Source: Naegleria gruberi (Eukaryota). Taken from it: 64,000 bases of DNA. Below the pieces are notes generated by a model that saw only the letters and a program-made list of their open reading frames with translations, did no database searches and had not been told where the DNA came from. How positions within the stretch are numbered: position 1 is the first letter of the stretch; each line of letters starts with the position of its first letter. This document shows, in pieces, positions 1,484 to 12,900 of this stretch. The position numbers and the translations under genes were made by a program. Location of the stretch: assembly GCA_000004985.1 (NCBI GenBank), contig GG738861.1. One strand, 5' to 3'.

Positions 1484-2609
1484 TTAACAACCCAAAACAC
1501 TCTTGGCCTTAATCCAGTGGTTATCACGATCTTCCTTACCATTGAAACCACCATTAATACGTTTAGTACAGGTATCAAAACCAGTTTGATCACATCTATC
1601 AGCATATTGACTCAATCCAGCACGATTCCTATATAGAAATATGATAAATATGTCAAATAATGAATATTCATTAACACTTACCAGAACCAAACAGCAGTAC
1701 GGAATCCAATATCTGGATCAGCAGCTCTAGTTGGATTATTTTCCAAATCAACTCCGAGAGCTTGACCAGCTGCACGATAATTGGCTCTACCAGTAATTTG
1801 AATTGGACCTCTTCCCTTATACTATTGTTCATTGAAATTTAGTATATTAATATAAAGAAAATGAAACTTACTCTAACACCATCACCAGGATAGATATTTC
1901 CCAAATCCTTTCTTCCTTCATAAGCAGCTCCAGAAGCAAATTCAGTAAACCCTAATCAATTAATATTAATATGAATGTTAATTATTAATATTCAGAGTGC
2001 ATAACACTTACAATTCAAATCACCAGATTCATGGGCAATTTGAGCCAAGAAGGCAGTCATTCTACAACATGTACTAATTCCTCCTTCGGCCATGGCACTG
2101 TTCAAAAAAGTAATGTATTGGATAGCCTTTGTACCGGACAAGTTTGGCATGATAGCTCTCAAACTTTGAATGCTAACAGATGCTGAGAATGAAGCATAGC
2201 TCTTAATAGTAACAAAGTTAGAGGCAACATAACCAGAACCAAATGAACCAGAAACAAGATACCTTTTTTTGATTAATCAAACCGGACGGATATGAAATGA
2301 ATGTGAAAGAACAAATAAGAAAGTGGACGGACAGGGTATTTGATTGTTGTAATCGTTCATATACTTTGTTACAGATTCATTGAAAGATTAATTTACATAC
2401 CATGTGTATCCACAACCGTTTTCCATTTGACCACCGAATTTAACTTCAACACCATGAGGGAGTGTGGTCATGAGATTATAATCGGTGCATGGACCATCTC
2501 TCACTTTTAATCCGGATGGAGCATTCACAATCAATGTGTCTCCGTTTTGCAAGCCAAAAACAGCTTGACACAATAATATGAAGGCAATTAAGGCCGTAAA
2601 CAATTTCAT
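1484..2609 (-). CDS. Secreted SH3b-domain + GH19 (chitinase/lysozyme-like) hydrolase. 5 exons approx 2401..2609, 2012..2262, 1872..1951, 1682..1821, 1484..1628 (274 aa)
   Basis: Signal peptide MKLFTALIAFILLCQAVFG. Bacterial-SH3-like segment (LIVNAPSGLKVRDGPCTDYN...GCGYTWY). GH19 hallmark blocks FLAQIAHESGDL, YKGRGPIQITGRANY, GVDLENNPTRAADPDIGFRTAVWFW. Four introns with GTATGT/GTAAGT donors and AG acceptors restore one continuous frame; summed exon length 825 nt = 275 codons. Confidence 0.75.
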
Positions 2610-3413
2610 TTTTTATATAGGCTGCTGCCAATGAATGGTGCAGCAAACAACTCCAGCTATTTGTGAATTGCATCATTATGCTTCTCATCATTGGCTGCGC
2701 TTAATTAAAGCCCCGTTGAACACCTGTGCTGCTGATTTATAGCACAAGATCTTATTGAGATTTACAGCGCCCCCTTCCAATGGAACTAATAATTGGTGAA
2801 AATAAAATCTTACAGAGTAGTCGACTGTAAAGAGGAAGGCAGGTGGGATATATACTGGTATTGGAGTCGTGGATTTTATTGAATTAATTTCTTCTTACCT
2901 TATTTCTAAAGCACACCACAATAGTTTATCAATCCACTGAAAACCAAATTGATGGAATGCGATTCATGAAGAGAAATCAACTTGCTGTTTCGGATTGGAA
3001 TGTTTAAGACAAATTGCACCAAAATTGTGTTCTAAAGAAAGGATTGATTCAAATGAAATTTTTGGAACTGAAATTTCTAACCATGATTTTCTAACATCCT
3101 TCAACTGGAAATTCGAACATCCAACCATTGATTTTAATATCTCAAATATTCATACTTGAAAGAAATTCCTCAATCAAATAATCTTTACAATATTCATAAA
3201 CATTTGCCAAGTCATTTTTTTAAAATTGAACCAGCACCAATGGTGCTAACAATAAACTATTTAGATTTTTAAAATTGATCCAATTATATAAAATCATTAA
3301 TATCATCACTTAAATTTGTATAGAAATGGAGAAAATGAAAAATTGAAATAATTTAAAATTAATTTTTTAATTCATTCCAATATTCCAATGTACTTAGTTC
3401 TTGTATCCAATAA

Positions 3414-6542: not shown

Positions 6543-8336
6543 TTATTTTCTCTTGAATAATCTGGACATGAGTGAGTTGCCAGTTCTTTGCTTACAAATA
6601 TCAGAGTAGTATTTACGGAATTGTTCATTTGATATAGAAGCCGATATTCTGTTAACATCACCAATTGCTGCAATACCTGGTTGTTTACCATTGTAGAATA
6701 ATTTGTCCATCATGGCAAGGATATCATTCTTTGAAACAGAATCAATCTTTTCTACAAGGTAATCAACTCCAAAGTATTTGTCATTCCACATTAAATCGTT
6801 AACAGCATTGAGAACCAATGTTGAGTTGTCTTCCAAACTGTGAAGGACTTGGGATTTGTATTGTTGCTTGGCTTGATCCAAGAGGGCATCGTCAATATAT
6901 TCAGGCATCTTGGCCAATAAAGTTAAGATTGCAACTGGGAGTTGACCTGGATTCAATTCTTCATGATTAAGACTTGCATGGAATGAGAAAATACCAGTAT
7001 CAGAATAGGCAAAATGTTGAGCAATCATATTGTGGAATTGATAGGCAGGTAAATAATGTCTATTAATTACAGAGTAAATACCCTTTCCTGGACCTCCACT
7101 TGAGAATGAATCACCTCCTCCCAAAAGTACTTCCAAAATATTTGCAACAAATAAATTATCGCTATCCTTGTATCCAATACCTTCAAATGAAACTGCATAT
7201 GATGTAGTTGGTGGAATATTTTGTAAATAGGCAGATTGTGGTCTTTCCAAAAATTCAGTCATGACTGAAGAAGGATTCCAAACTGGTTTGGCAAAAGCAA
7301 CTGGTTCAAAATTGTTAGAGAGGGCTCCTGGTGAGAAGTCCATATACTTTTTAACAAGGGATAACATCTTGTCGTGTTCAATACCAATCGATGAAATAGT
7401 ACACCTCTTAGGAACATAGAATCTATTGTAGAATTCATAGAGCATTTCAGGTGTAGCATCTTCCTTAATGGATACTGAAGGATTTCCGAGACCTCCTTCC
7501 GAGTTGGTTCCAAAGCATGACTTTAAAATGCAATCTGTCAATACATTAGAATTTGCAGGAATTGCCATTTCAGTTTCTAAATTGTATTTCAATAACTCGA
7601 TAGCATCATCGATATCTGATTGGTAAAACTTTGGATGTAACATTGTGTCAGAAAGGAATTCAAATGCCAATTCTACCTTATCCTTTGGACAAGTGATAAA
7701 GAAGGAATGGCTTTCGTATTCAGATGTTGATTCGTATAATACCTTATCTTCCAAATTTTCCTTCACATAATCTTCGGAAAACTTTCTACTGTGAGCGAAA
7801 GTTAATCTATTGATAATTGTTGAAATTCCTCTTTCTTCTGGTTTTTCATATCTTGGACCAGCTTTGAATGTGACGCAAATATTAACCAGATTAGAATGTT
7901 TAGAAAATGTTGAAACTCTGAGACCATTATCAAGGGATGAAATTTTCAAATCTTTAGCATTAAAGTGAATTCCAGGAACAACATATTCAAGAGAAACCTT
8001 ATCACTAAATAATGATTGTGTAAGATTTGGTAATTTTGGTTTAACATTATTAAATGATGGAGCATCTCCGAGAGTCAAAATTTCCTTGTTGTTTTTCTTT
8101 TTTAAAAGGTCCTTCAATTTTTGTCTATCAAGTTGAGAAGCAGTTTCAAGAACAGGATTTTCGGAATTAATACTACTCTCCTTCAACAATAAATTATTTG
8201 AAAAGGATCTAGTACAAGTAGAAGCGGATCCACTACTCAACAAATTTCCCGAAACTATTGGATTGGTGGCCTTGATAGCCGAGGCCTTTCTATTCAACAA
8301 TTGATGCACAAGAAAATTAGCTGCTGTCTTGTTCAT
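6543..8336 (-). CDS. PMPCA: Mitochondrial processing peptidase alpha subunit-like (M16 family, non-catalytic), 597 aa
   Basis: M16 fold with degenerate zinc motif (no HxxEH; NRLTFAHSRKFS). Characteristic MPP-alpha glycine-rich loop GGGDSFSSGGPGKGIYS. N-terminal presequence-like region. Confidence 0.7.
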   Translation of the reverse strand: MNKTAANFLVHQLLNRKASAIKATNPIVSGNLLSSGSASTCTRSFSNNLLLKESSINSENPVLETASQLDRQKLKDLLKKKNNKEILTLGDAPSFNNVKPKLPNLTQSLFSDKVSLEYVVPGIHFNAKDLKISSLDNGLRVSTFSKHSNLVNICVTFKAGPRYEKPEERGISTIINRLTFAHSRKFSEDYVKENLEDKVLYESTSEYESHSFFITCPKDKVELAFEFLSDTMLHPKFYQSDIDDAIELLKYNLETEMAIPANSNVLTDCILKSCFGTNSEGGLGNPSVSIKEDATPEMLYEFYNRFYVPKRCTISSIGIEHDKMLSLVKKYMDFSPGALSNNFEPVAFAKPVWNPSSVMTEFLERPQSAYLQNIPPTTSYAVSFEGIGYKDSDNLFVANILEVLLGGGDSFSSGGPGKGIYSVINRHYLPAYQFHNMIAQHFAYSDTGIFSFHASLNHEELNPGQLPVAILTLLAKMPEYIDDALLDQAKQQYKSQVLHSLEDNSTLVLNAVNDLMWNDKYFGVDYLVEKIDSVSKNDILAMMDKLFYNGKQPGIAAIGDVNRISASISNEQFRKYYSDICKQRTGNSLMSRLFKRK

Positions 8337-8944
8337 TTTTTTTATCGAGAATTTAAAAAAATTAACTAGATAAAAATTGATTTAATATTCAATTTCCATT
8401 GTCCTAGGTAATGAAGAAGTTGATTGAATTTAGATAATTTATTAATAACAGGTTGTGTGTTGGTAAAATATGCTAAAAGTACGACTATTTGGTATTTCTA
8501 CTCACTTCAGGATGTAATAATTATTAAAATTTGAATGAAGGAATTAAACAAATGAACCTCCGTCGAGAAAAAGTGCATTCATGATTATTCAAGACCTCTA
8601 TTTTAGTTCCTCAAAAATCCTCAGAGAATAAAAACCAAATTAATCAACTTGATGTTGGCAAAATTTCAAGGTTAGGAGGTGAGTGATTGCAGAGTAAAGA
8701 ACCTCTATTACATTTATTTACAATATCAAGAATTTGCACTACTGTTTCGAATGACAAATATGATTCAAGATCATCACAAACCAGCAAACAAACTATGATC
8801 TGAGGAAGGATTACAAAAACACTTGTGGAAATTATTATTTCTCATAATTAACACCCAATTCAAAAAAGTACAAATATTCAAACTCGACATTCCAATAAAC
8901 CTAGGTCAGCCAGACAGCAATTATTTGATCATTGTGAAAAAAAT
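8337..8944. promoter_or_regulatory. Divergent intergenic region between MPP-alpha (minus) and the PL7-like gene (plus); presumed bidirectional promoter
   Basis: 608-bp AT-rich spacer flanked by two outward-facing start codons. No specific motif identified. Confidence 0.3.
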
Positions 8945-9844
8945 ATGAACAAACAAAGTGTTGTCCTCACTTTTGCAGTTATCTGCCTATTCTTCATTCA
9001 TAACCTGAATGCAATTTGGCCTTCTCAAATTATTGACCTTCGCAACTGGAAATTAACACTTCCTGTTGGTGAGCCTGGAGATGCTATGGAAATTAAACAA
9101 CCAACCTTGGATAGATACTCTCTCAATCCATATTTTGGTGCCACTACTAATAACACTGGTGTAAGATTCAGAGTGCTCATGTCCAACGTAACCGTCACAA
9201 CTTCCTCTAATACCAAATATGCAAGAAGTGAATTGAGAGAAATGGATTCTTCAAATCCTAGTAGCACTAAGGCAGCTTGGAATACCACGGTTGGTACTCA
9301 TACCATGATTATCGATCAAACCATTACAAGATTACCAACCACTAGAAAGAAGGTTATTGCTGGTCAAGTCCACGATGCAGATGAATATGTTGTAACCATC
9401 CATTTGGAAGGAACCAAGCTCTATATCAATATCGTAGGAGTTGGAACCACAACCATTTCCCAAAATTATATTGTTGGCACAAGATTCCAAATCAAGATTC
9501 AAGTTAAGAATGGAGTCACAAGTATTTATTACAATAATATGAATACTCCTATTTATTCTATTACAAAGAGTTATAAGGGAGCCTACTTCAAGGCAGGTTG
9601 TTATGCTCAATCTAATTGCGAATTTGAGGGAAGTTTATGTGGAAAATCAAATAATTATGCTGAAGTTGTAATTCATAACTTGACCATTACGCATGAATAC
9701 CCAAGCGTTCAAGCAAGAAATGGAATTCTCAATGGATGGTTTGCAAATATGATTACAAGTGATGGTGTTAGTTTTGGAACCTCTGGTTTGATTCAATTGG
9801 TGTATTCATGTTTGTTGGTTTTCTTATTTGTTATTTTTGCCTAA
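8945..9844 (+). CDS. Secreted polysaccharide lyase family 7 (alginate lyase 2 domain)-like protein with N-terminal signal peptide and C-terminal hydrophobic (GPI-anchor-like) tail, 299 aa
   Basis: The three PL7 signature blocks occur in the right order and spacing: RSELREM, IAGQVHD (QIH block), YFKAGCYAQS (YFKAG-Y-Q block). Signal peptide MNKQSVVLTFAVICLFFIHNLNA. Terminal LVYSCLLVFLFVIFA. Confidence 0.65.
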   Translation: MNKQSVVLTFAVICLFFIHNLNAIWPSQIIDLRNWKLTLPVGEPGDAMEIKQPTLDRYSLNPYFGATTNNTGVRFRVLMSNVTVTTSSNTKYARSELREMDSSNPSSTKAAWNTTVGTHTMIIDQTITRLPTTRKKVIAGQVHDADEYVVTIHLEGTKLYINIVGVGTTTISQNYIVGTRFQIKIQVKNGVTSIYYNNMNTPIYSITKSYKGAYFKAGCYAQSNCEFEGSLCGKSNNYAEVVIHNLTITHEYPSVQARNGILNGWFANMITSDGVSFGTSGLIQLVYSCLLVFLFVIFA

Positions 9845-9973
9845 ATGTTAAGAAGAATGCAATTAACAAACATGCATTGTTTGAAATTGTCTTTAATTAA
9901 AATGAAGGATTTGTGTTAAAACTAAAGAATTCATTAATGTTAATCAATATTAAATTATTTAAAAATTAAAAAA

Positions 9974-12900
9974 ATGCAAAGAGTGATAACCAGCCAATCA
10001 AAAAAGAAACTCTCCTCATCACAACAATTTATTTGGTTGTCGCTCTCTCAACAAACCTCTTCTTCTTCATCAGCTGTTGCCGCCAATTTTTCAACAAGTC
10101 AAAATTTACTTGTCGATGAGAGGGATAAGAGATTTTCACATACCATTCTTCTTCCGAAATCAAATTTTAAAACAAAGGCTTCATTGGAGGAGGAACTTAC
10201 AATACAACAAATAAGTAGAGATTATGCCTATACTAAATTAAAGGAAGATAGATTGAAGAGTGGAGCAAAAAGATTTACACTTCATGATGGACCTCCATAT
10301 GCAAATGGTACTCTTCATACTGGTCACTTTTTGAACAAGGTATTGAAGGATATTACAAATAGATTTAAACTTCTTACTGGTCACTTGGTTGAATTTATTC
10401 CAGGTTGGGATTGTCACGGTTTACCAATTGAAAGTAAAGTATTCCAAGAAATTAAGAAGAAGAAAAAAGGAACTGAAGGAATTACAATTTCTGGAACTAA
10501 AGATCCAATTATTAGAAAATTAGCTAAAGATTTTGCTGAACAAGCAATTCAATCACAATTGAACGATTTTAAACGTTGGGGTGTTATGGGAGAATGGGAT
10601 AATCCATACAAGACTATGAATCCAACATTTGAAGCCCAACAATTGAGAATTTTCCTTGACATGTTAAATAAGAAATATATTTTCAGAGGAAAGAAACCTG
10701 TTTATTGGTCTCCATCGAGTGGAACTGCATTGGCTGAATCCGAATTGGAATATCCAGATGTACATATATCAAAATCATGTTATGTCTTATTCCCAATTAC
10801 TACATCAAATACTGAAATGTCTCAAAAGTATGGTGAATTATTTGCCACTGTGTGGACAACTACTCCTTGGACATTGATTGCCAACGAAGCCATTTCCTAC
10901 AATCAAGATATAGAATATTCAATTATTTATGACTCTGAAAAACATAGAAGACTTATTATTGCCTCAGAATTAATGAAAAGCGTTTGTGAAAAGACTGGTA
11001 TTAAGAATTTCACTGTTTTACAAGCTATGAAAGGAAAGGATCTCTTTGTTAATAATGATATTTTAATGGGAGATAAGGTGTCATCCTATGTTAATCCATT
11101 GACTTCCTCCGTTACAGATAAGAAACTTCCATTTTTGAATGGATCTCATGTTACAACTGAAGTTGGTACTGGTCTCGTTCACACAGCTCCAAATCACGGT
11201 ATTGAAGATTTCCAAGTTGTTAAAGATAATAGCTTACCAATTGGACCTTGCTTTGTTGATGAATATGGTAAATATAATTCTCAAACTCCACTCCCACACT
11301 TGATTGGTCTTCCTGTATTGAGTGTTGGTAATGAAAAGGTTGTTGAAATGTTGCAAGGAGATTTGTCACAATATTTGCTTCTCAAAGAAGATTATTCACA
11401 CAGATATCCATACGATTGGAGAACTAAACAACCAATTCTCATCAGAATGACTGAACAATGGTTTGCTGAATTGAAAGATTTGAAGAATGTTGCCAAGGAA
11501 TATGTCGATGAAAAGATTGAAATGATTCCAAGTTCAGGAAGAAATCGTCTCAAGTCCTTTGTTGAATCTAGAGATGAATGGTGTATTAGTAGACAAAGAA
11601 CATGGGGAGTTCCTATTCCAGTATTCTATAAGGAAAATAATCCTTCAGAATATTTAGCAACAAGTGAAAGTATTGAACATGTGATTAGTCTTGTTGAAAA
11701 GCATGGTACTGATTGTTGGTTTGAAATGAGTGAAGATCAACTGCTGTCTCCTCAATACAGAAATCAAGGATGGAAGAAGGGAACTGATACACTCGATGTA
11801 TGGTTTGACAGTGGTACAACCTGGTTTGGTGTTGTAAAGGCCTCTGGTATTCCTCTTCCAGCTGATGTTTATTTGGAAGGTTCTGATCAACATCGTGGTT
11901 GGTTCCAATCGTCACTTCTCACAAGTTTGGCCTATCAAGGTGTTCCTCCATACAAGAAGATTGTTACTCACGGTTTCGTTACTGATGAGGCTGGAAAGAA
12001 GATGAGTAAATCAATTGGTAACACAATTGAACCAGAATCAATCATTAGTAAGCAAGGTGTTGATGTATTGAGACTTTGGGTAAGCCATAGTGACTTTTCT
12101 GTAGATGTTTCAATTGGTAAGAATGTCATTGAAAAAGTTTCTACCAATTTGAAAAAGATCAGAAATACTGCCAAATTCATGTTGGGTGTATTGGAAAATT
12201 ATGATCCAAACTTGCCAGTCTCAAAGGAACAACTTGTTGAAGTTGACTATTATATTATCAATAGAGTTAAACAATTCTGTGATCAAATTACGGAAAGCTA
12301 TGAAAACTTTAACTATTACAAGGTTAATCAACTTTTAATGACATTTACTTATGAACTCTCTTCATTTTACTTGGATATTGTTAAGGATAGACTCTATTGT
12401 GGAGAGGAAGAGGCAAGAAAACCTTCTCAAAAAGTTATTCATTACATTTTGGATTGCTATACAAAGGCTCTCTCCCCAATCATTTGTCACACTGCTGAAG
12501 ATATTTATCAATCAATGGAATTCAAGAAGAATAAGAGTATTTTCGAAGAAGGGTGGTTCATTAAGCCAGAAGATTTCTTCCAAGGCATTGAACTCCCTCA
12601 AGAAGAAAAAACAACTGAAATGTTTAATCAAGTTATTGAATTGAGACAAGAAATATTCAAATTGATTGAAAAGGCAAGAATGGATAAGGTTTTCAGAACT
12701 TCCAACGAAGTCAAAGTAACCATCGAAAGTGTAGAATCAGAGAAATTGATTCAAGCCATTCAACCACTTCTCTCGCAAAGTACAAAACAAAATAAGAATA
12801 CTCAACTCGAAGATATTATGATGGTTTCATCAGTAGAATGGTTGAAAGGAATTAATCCTAATCCTCTCTACACTCTCCAATACGAAACCAGTTTAGATTC

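Follow-up and report, generated by a model that had tools for sequence, protein, structure and literature searches.

An intron-bearing SH3b-GH19 gene of Naegleria gruberi and its probable origin from a bacterial lysozyme gene

Enzymes of glycoside hydrolase family 19 (GH19) fall into an endolysin branch and a chitinase branch, which are separated by a set of residue positions (Orlando et al. 2021, PMC8547705), and members characterised experimentally include both protist and bacterial proteins. In Trichomonas, the class B GH19s (TGA_001274700 and TVAGG3_0677660) are laterally acquired proteins composed of a signal peptide, SH3b and GH19, and are muramidases rather than chitinases as determined by high-performance liquid chromatography and mass spectrometry (Mol Biol Evol 2025, PMC12612818). 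The bacterium Corallococcus silvisoli secretes the lysozyme C25GH19B, which has a pH optimum of 4.5–5 and acts on Gram-positive as well as Gram-negative cells (PMC9098779). In Naegleria gruberi, four GH19 sequences have been listed as 'chitinases' with possible lateral gene transfer (PMC13231604). Here we describe one N. gruberi GH19 gene, NAEGRDRAFT_66142, which lies in a 64,000-nucleotide stretch of contig GG738861.1 (assembly GCA_000004985.1; hereafter the window), and which no paper was found to name or characterise in a full-text literature search.

NAEGRDRAFT_66142 is a eukaryotic gene of bacterial ancestry that has endolysin-type affinity, retains its catalytic residues and evolves under purifying selection. 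We place at roughly 0.7 the probability that the gene, nuclear and functional, goes back to a bacterial (Myxococcota-like) lysozyme gene of the endolysin type that an ancestor of Naegleria and Willaertia acquired by lateral transfer and that has since been domesticated, and that its product digests the walls of ingested bacteria.

Domains, catalytic residues and gene structure

Profile comparisons, sequence markers and the fold of a homologue agree in assigning the GH19 domain to the endolysin/lysozyme branch, as opposed to the chitinase branch, of its family. The domain matches PHROG 181 ("endolysin") at 2e-54 over residues 96–273, and the top chains in a sequence search of the PDB are phage and bacterial GH19 endolysins (9ms7, from PWe2, at 5e-31 over residues 100–271; 9hnv at 2e-29; 9eoi at 6e-29), with chitinases beginning at 4e-16. 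The Pfam profile Glyco_hydro_19 (PF00182), which is dominated by chitinases and covers only residues 138–229, scores 57.1 bits, well over its cut-off of 25.5; a profile score below threshold had been named as grounds for refuting the initial annotation. For fold comparisons a homologue (P0001, 66% identical) was used in place of the NAEGRDRAFT_66142 protein itself, and its GH19 domain has a bilobal, alpha-helical, lysozyme-like fold that is closer to endolysins than to chitinases.

The residues that distinguish the two branches were mapped through an alignment with the SPN1S endolysin and are given in SPN1S numbering. Endolysin states are present at I33, Q45, S50, G118 and T130, with the motif FLAQIAHES supplying Q45 and S50 and IQIT supplying T130; at this last, water-coordinating position, Thr is characteristic of endolysins and Ser of chitinases (PMC8547705). 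The Cys97/Cys105 pair of chitinases is absent, there being no Cys after the conserved Tyr (YEGRKDLGNIY). The pattern that defines the ELYS subfamily (I33, R109, G118, L/Y173) is clear at two positions (I33 and G118), ambiguous at R109, which is present only when the alignment is anchored on the conserved Tyr (YEGR) and is replaced by Asp in the HMMER local alignment, and different at position 173, which is Ser with a Leu one residue earlier; L173 is itself only 54% conserved within the ELYS subfamily (Orlando et al. 2021, PMC8547705). The two predicted catalytic glutamates, E148 and E157, are invariant in an alignment of 47 homologues. Although homologous to endolysins, NAEGRDRAFT_66142 is not itself one: it is a nuclear gene of a eukaryote, lies among eukaryotic neighbours, contains introns and codes for a signal peptide.

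The initial annotation, made from the sequence, described the product as a signal peptide followed by an SH3b domain and a compact GH19 domain, and the same architecture is seen by Pfam, PHROGs, the PDB sequence search and the fold of P0001. A hydrophobic N-terminus, indicative of a signal peptide, is present in every paralogue compared, and in the P0001 model this region forms a low-confidence N-terminal helix. The SH3_3 profile (PF08239) scores a marginal 28.2 bits against a cut-off of 27. PF08239 is precomputed on SH3-bearing homologues too, and the SH3b of P0001 is an SH3-like beta-barrel that resembles cell-wall-binding domains in fold comparisons.

The further claim that this domain combination is typical of bacteria and phages does not hold for the endolysin branch, since the bacterial proteins nearest to the Naegleria one have LysM, PG_binding_1 or no additional module; LysM and PG_binding_1 are also the only accessory modules common in GH19 endolysins (Orlando et al. 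2021, PMC8547705). The SH3 region, used as the query of a profile search, returned only weak, stand-alone bacterial SH3_3/YgiM-like matches of 24–38% identity, and a scan of bacterial and archaeal genomes with protein-specific 8-mers, in an uneven sample that missed Myxococcota, found no bacterial locus matching the SH3 part. Statements about nearest relatives, here and below, rest on the best 120 of 7,875 matches (E<=1e-10). Neither these 120, nor the SH3-region profile search, nor the genome scan yielded a close bacterial SH3_3-GH19 fusion, so the two domains may have been joined after transfer or in a donor that has not been sampled. In a neighbour-joining tree, copies with and without SH3b group with one another inside each genus, the three Willaertia copies in 198 of 200 bootstraps, which argues for repeated loss or, less likely, repeated gain of SH3b. 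Variants of the domain are also seen: the metagenome protein P0005 has two tandem SH3b domains before GH19, an arrangement like that of the Trichomonas class B GH19s, and five other proteins (P0017–P0019, P0026 and P0031) have a shorter SH3b without the Cys pair.

The gene has five exons on the minus strand (2609..1484), which join in frame into a coding sequence of 825 nt for a protein of 274 residues (Table 1). The product is letter-identical to the public N. gruberi protein XP_002678616.1 (EFC45872.1; UniProt D2VBA0), which is annotated only as "predicted protein", and the exon model of the initial annotation reproduces the public gene model. The number of introns reported there (four), their GTAAGT and GTATGT donors, the lengths of 138, 60 and 50 nt, and the quoted motifs (present as FLAQIAHESG and YKGRGPIQIT) are all correct, and the sole error concerns the last intron, which had been given as 47 nt at 1629..1680 and is actually 53 nt at 1629..1681. 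The introns have a GC content of 18–30% compared with 40% in the exons, and retention of any one of them breaks the frame or introduces stop codons. The spliced product aligns without gaps across all four junctions with intronless homologues from Willaertia, uncultured protists and bacteria. The sequence TATATAAAAA lies directly 5' of the ATG (2610..2619, minus strand); if this is a TATA element, then either the 5' untranslated region is extremely short or another start site is used.

Table 1. Features of NAEGRDRAFT_66142, with positions in the window, and intron positions in other Naegleria GH19 genes. A slash marks the splice or cleavage point within the quoted residues; aa, amino acids.
Feature	Position	Strand	Description
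Whole gene, ATG to stop	1484..2609	minus	5 exons, 4 introns, 274 aa
Signal peptide, ~aa 1–19	2553..2609	minus	MKLFTALIAFILLCQAVFG/LQ; read from the sequence, cleavage site by the -3/-1 rule
SH3b (Pfam SH3_3, PF08239), aa 32–87	2211..2516	minus	Span takes in intron 1
GH19 catalytic domain, ~aa 100–274	1487..2174	minus	Span takes in introns 2–4; from PHROG, PDB and homologue fold
Glu148 codon	2028..2030	minus	Predicted general acid (E of HES; SPN1S E49); from alignments and PMC8547705 numbering
Glu157 codon	1941..1943	minus	Predicted general base, +9 from Glu148 (SPN1S E58)
Thr190 codon	1792..1794	minus	Predicted water-coordinating residue (SPN1S T130); from alignment
Exon 1, 209 nt	2401..2609	minus	ATG at 2609..2607, signal peptide and bulk of SH3b; ends in phase 2 within Trp70
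Intron 1, 138 nt, GTATGT..AG	2263..2400	minus	Phase 2 (TW/Y); window gene only, position unique among copies compared
Exon 2, 251 nt	2012..2262	minus	End of SH3b, Ser-rich linker, start of GH19 including FLAQIAHESG
Intron 2, 60 nt, GTAAGT..AG	1952..2011	minus	Phase 1 (HESGDLN/W); window gene only, unique position
Exon 3, 80 nt	1872..1951	minus	
Intron 3, 50 nt, GTAAGT..AG	1822..1871	minus	Phase 0 (GDGVR/YKGRG); also in 3 of the 4 N. lovaniensis paralogues, the two SH3-less copies among them (4/5 Naegleria genes)
Exon 4, 140 nt	1682..1821	minus	Contains YKGRGPIQIT
Intron 4, 53 nt, GTAAGT..AG	1629..1681	minus	Phase 2 (WFW/N); window gene only, unique position
Exon 5, 145 nt including TAA stop (1486..1484)	1484..1628	minus	C-terminal protist-specific Cys (..VLGC)
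Intron FL/AQ			Phase 1; three N. lovaniensis genes
Intron GVD/LEN			Phase 2; two N. lovaniensis genes
Intron EGRK/D			Phase 0; one N. lovaniensis gene (P0010, L005)
Intron EGRR/D			Phase 1; one N. lovaniensis gene (P0003, L001 9576..10677); 1 nt from the EGRK/D position

Relatives, host integration and intron history

The closest relatives are in other vahlkampfiid amoebae. N. lovaniensis has two tandem SH3b-GH19 genes, with products 66% and 58% identical to that of NAEGRDRAFT_66142, together with two SH3-less paralogues; of the three copies in Willaertia magna, one bears SH3b (60% identity) and the other two lack it. Metagenome proteins with the same architecture are also present, with uncultured carriers in JGI metagenomes 3300062347 and 3300062135, and every copy whose context was checked is on a eukaryote-like contig, with neighbours that include leishmanolysin, diacylglycerol (DAG) kinase, F-box/leucine-rich repeat, ankyrin, RWP-RK, GRIM-19 and RGS genes. 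A signature common to all of the protist proteins, and seen in no bacterial one, consists of a Cys in "NTC..", a C-terminal Cys ("..LGC") and a 3-residue insertion before "xxFD". The 32 protist sequences form a single clade in the neighbour-joining tree, though with only 29% bootstrap support, and Myxococcota are nearest by distance. The 3-residue insertion, which was left out of the tree alignment, and the two Cys are rare characters that independently favour one protist clade.

The nearest bacterial proteins are Myxococcota GH19s of the LysM-GH19, PG_binding_1-GH19 and stand-alone types, which are 62–70% identical over the whole domain, followed by those of Acidobacteriota, and the named non-protist matches among those listed are all bacterial, mainly from these two phyla. 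The LysM-bearing bacterial relatives correspond to the clade II paralogue C25GH19C (PMC10875029), and a Corallococcus match (P0074, 202 aa) has its E79 and E88 at the same positions as C25GH19B. The phage records that match number 1,651 and are all below 60% identity, with the endolysin of Myxococcus phage Mx1 at 56%. A prophage-like lysis cassette in a bacterial metagenome-assembled genome (MAG), in which a small transmembrane protein is followed by a 174-aa stand-alone GH19 (L012, 1090..2022), contains a 63% identical protein. The MAG is labelled 'uncultured Clostridia bacterium', and by eye, over the aligned N-terminal region, its GH19 closely resembles one from a Blastocatellia MAG (P0119); the occurrence of very similar endolysins in MAGs assigned to different phyla suggests that they are of mobile or phage descent, or else that binning went wrong.

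The tandem N. lovaniensis genes, C9374_005244 and C9374_005243 (8001..9084 and 9576..10677 of the locus taken from PYSW02000023.1), are 74% identical with a ratio of nonsynonymous to synonymous substitution rates (dN/dS) of 0.30. The N. gruberi window locus is single-copy and its flanks differ from those of the tandem locus, such that synteny is not obvious. We note that four of the 120 best GH19 matches are from N. lovaniensis and none is from its sister species N. fowleri; the pathogen may have lost the family, or the database may have a gap. Three loci of JGI metagenome 3300062347 (L003, L010 and L011) represent one uncultured, intron-poor eukaryote with at least three protist-type GH19 paralogues, one of which has SH3b. 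Among the top 120 matches of the DAG kinase adjoining one of these copies, none is from Naegleria or Willaertia, and the closest are proteins of Acanthamoeba (44%) and Balamuthia (43%). This neighbour looks amoebozoan rather than heterolobosean and, as a suggestive observation from one gene, indicates that the GH19 family may extend beyond the Heterolobosea.

The initial annotation regarded the gene as an old, fully domesticated transfer, and this is borne out by its integration into the host genome, its paralogues in N. lovaniensis and W. magna, the constraint on its sequence and a shared intron. Its GC content at third codon positions is 0.27, compared with 0.25–0.29 in neighbouring genes, and its relative synonymous codon usage (RSCU) correlates with theirs at r = 0.85; GC is about 34% throughout the window. 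The gene sits on a 507-kb scaffold, and the window neighbours are ordinary eukaryotic genes, coding for an M16 peptidase, an Ile-tRNA synthetase, an oxysterol-binding protein, an RCC1-repeat protein, an apyrase, V-ATPase subunit C and an SPB4-type DEAD-box helicase. The locus is also present in an independent sequencing run, where the sole Logan contig with exon 1 (L053) is genomic DNA that includes the introns and is 99.4% identical. The dN/dS ratio is 0.11–0.42 in all ten pairs tested, and 0.19–0.30 in the least saturated pairs, which have dS of 0.57–0.78. The host-like codons, the presence of the family in two vahlkampfiid genera, the several paralogues per genome and the dN/dS values together argue for an old acquisition under purifying selection.

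No second GH19 copy was found in the window, and tRNA and Rfam scans of its 64 kb gave no matches. About 6.3 kb from the GH19 gene there is a second secreted, bacterial-type polysaccharide-degrading enzyme, encoded by an intronless 299-aa open reading frame (8945..9844, plus strand) that is exactly identical to NAEGRDRAFT_66146 (D2VBA4, 'predicted protein'). It matches the full Pfam Alginate_lyase2 model (PF08787) at 6e-37, has a signal peptide and a hydrophobic C-terminal tail, and shows host-like codon usage (RSCU r 0.86); it may be another lateral acquisition.

The introns are restricted to Naegleria. All three Willaertia genes and all four uncultured-protist genes checked are intronless, whereas each of the five Naegleria genes compared has 2–4 introns, at eight distinct positions overall (Table 1). 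As the bacterial ancestor and the outgroups lack introns, they were evidently gained in the Naegleria lineage, and the distribution of positions indicates that at least one was gained before the Naegleria paralogues diverged and others later. The 1-nt offset between the EGRK/D and EGRR/D positions could stem from intron sliding or from separate insertions into a favoured site. An introner-like origin is unsupported, as the introns resemble neither one another nor other parts of the window, with only 11–16-nt AT-rich chance matches, although a 64-kb window provides a weak test. The family offers a series of intron gains that is clean and datable, the gene having necessarily been intronless at the start.

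Function and alternative explanations

An antibacterial digestive lysozyme is the most likely function of the product, and peptidoglycan rather than chitin its probable substrate, because the two experimentally characterised relatives or analogues, the myxobacterial lysozyme group and the Trichomonas class B GH19s, are lysozymes or muramidases; a bacterivorous protist had been proposed as the host, and the source is indeed N. gruberi. The signal peptide would take the protein into the secretory/endolysosomal route, where the SH3b beta-barrel, joined to the compact GH19 domain by a flexible Ser-rich linker, would dock onto peptidoglycan. The GH19 domain would then cut the beta-1,4 backbone between N-acetylmuramic acid and N-acetylglucosamine by an inverting mechanism, with Glu148 acting as the acid, Glu157 as the base and Thr190 positioning the water, so that bacterial walls are broken down extracellularly or within the acidic food vacuole. 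Disulfides between the added cysteines (41/66 in SH3b; 135/136, 239, 247 and 274 in GH19), with C41–C66, C135 or C136 with C274, and C239–C247 as the predicted pairs, may stabilise the protein in a vacuole that is acidic and rich in proteases.

The protein could alternatively be a chitinase that hydrolyses the chitin of fungal or other prey, or that of the amoeba's cyst wall as the cell encysts and excysts, with the SH3b-like domain as a general glycan or wall anchor. Every comparison made disfavours this, and we consider it unlikely: sequence, profile and fold comparisons all rank endolysins and lysozymes above chitinases, the Cys97/Cys105 pair is missing with S50, T130 and Q45 in their endolysin states, and the accessory domain is of a peptidoglycan-binding type and not a chitin-binding module. 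Both the closest characterised relatives, which are the C25GH19B group of Corallococcus, and the analogue, the class B GH19s of Trichomonas, are lysozymes, the Trichomonas enzymes being without chitinase activity. A literature search on chitin in the cyst walls of Naegleria gave no evidence of it and nothing decisive. The gene more likely codes for a lysozyme of the endolysin branch that acts on peptidoglycan than for the 'chitinase' of current annotations.

A muramidase could also serve in defence or competition, as an innate-immunity effector that kills bacteria such as Legionella or chlamydia-like symbionts, by secretion or within vacuoles. The same molecular evidence that points to digestion applies here, the several paralogues per genome, with and without SH3b, are compatible with diversification against different bacteria, and Trichomonas GH19 is upregulated on bacterial contact (PMC12612818). 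The data at hand do not separate the two roles, which overlap in a bacterivore, and we judge a primarily defensive one to be quite improbable. A reading of the gene as the decaying remnant of a transfer, no longer functional, or as mis-assembled bacterial contaminant DNA is scarcely credible, even though its product is annotated only as a 'predicted protein'. The reading frame is intact over five exons, the catalytic residues are conserved, dN/dS is well below 1 and the signal peptide is kept in all paralogues, which speaks against decay; contamination is excluded by the four canonical spliceosomal introns, host codon usage, eukaryotic flanks, 507-kb scaffold and the 99.4%-identical locus in an independent read set.

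Digestion of bacterial walls by a domesticated lysozyme remains the reading we prefer, and a broader proposal can be attached to it only tentatively. The proteins with a signal peptide, SH3b, GH19, extra cysteines and the 3-residue insertion might constitute a distinct, unnamed family of endolysin-derived eukaryotic lysozymes, in which the fusion occurred after transfer, which spread between unrelated amoebae, and which underwent a burst of intron gain in the Naegleria lineage. We regard this as possible but doubtful. Such a family, if real, would run counter to the published view that GH19s of the endolysin type occur only in phages and bacteria. Its Naegleria members, whose five paralogues have introns at eight positions against none in Willaertia or the other protists, would be a natural system for the study of recent intron gain. 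Lysozymes that are acid-active, Cys-stabilised and equipped with a wall-binding module are also of possible interest as enzybiotic scaffolds.

Comparison with known systems

The phage GH19 endolysins, including those of PWe2 (9ms7), P. aeruginosa (9eoi), SPN1S (4ok7) and Mx1, act inside the host cell, are encoded in lysis cassettes and usually lack a signal peptide, whereas NAEGRDRAFT_66142 is a eukaryotic gene with introns, a signal peptide and an added SH3b domain. The 3-helix bundle inserted in the SPN1S enzyme is absent from the Naegleria protein. The myxobacterial clade II GH19s share with it the compact endolysin-like fold and the E...E(+9) pair, and are secreted by a predator of bacteria; as no bacterial proteins among the matches come nearer than lysozymes of this Myxococcota type, a weapon of one predator may have passed into the use of a second. 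They differ in having LysM, PG_binding_1 or no module, and never SH3b among the matches listed, in lacking the NTC.. Cys, the C-terminal Cys and the 3-residue insertion, and in being encoded by intronless genes in high-GC genomes.

Other antibacterial hydrolases acquired laterally by eukaryotes include the GH25 muramidases, the Tae/Dae amidases, the NlpC/P60 enzymes of T. vaginalis and the fungal GH24 and GH184 muramidases. All of these belong to catalytic families different from GH19. The fungal GH24 and GH184 enzymes also carry SH3-like wall-binding domains (PMC10394673).

The closest parallel is with the Trichomonas class B GH19s, which, like NAEGRDRAFT_66142, are products of bacterial-derived protist genes with a signal peptide, an N-terminal SH3b and a GH19 domain with two catalytic glutamates. 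In both lineages SH3b-less paralogues coexist with these proteins (the 'class A' of Trichomonas), and both hosts interact with bacteria or eat them. The Trichomonas proteins have two tandem SH3b domains and have been assayed as enzymes, whereas NAEGRDRAFT_66142 has one SH3b and four introns, and its activity is a predicted one. No Trichomonas or other metamonad protein is among the 120 best matches, and the report on the Trichomonas enzymes makes no mention of Naegleria (PMC12612818); the two acquisitions of an SH3b-GH19 gene were probably independent. Capture of an SH3b-GH19 muramidase by a protist has already been demonstrated in Trichomonas, and the Naegleria gene is a further instance of a known theme that changes no major concept. 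To it we add the modest points of an assignment to the endolysin branch, a protist-specific signature, nearest relatives that are Myxococcota-like and intron gains specific to Naegleria, and with them a free-living heterolobosean joins the increasing number of protists that have captured cell-wall hydrolases from bacteria.

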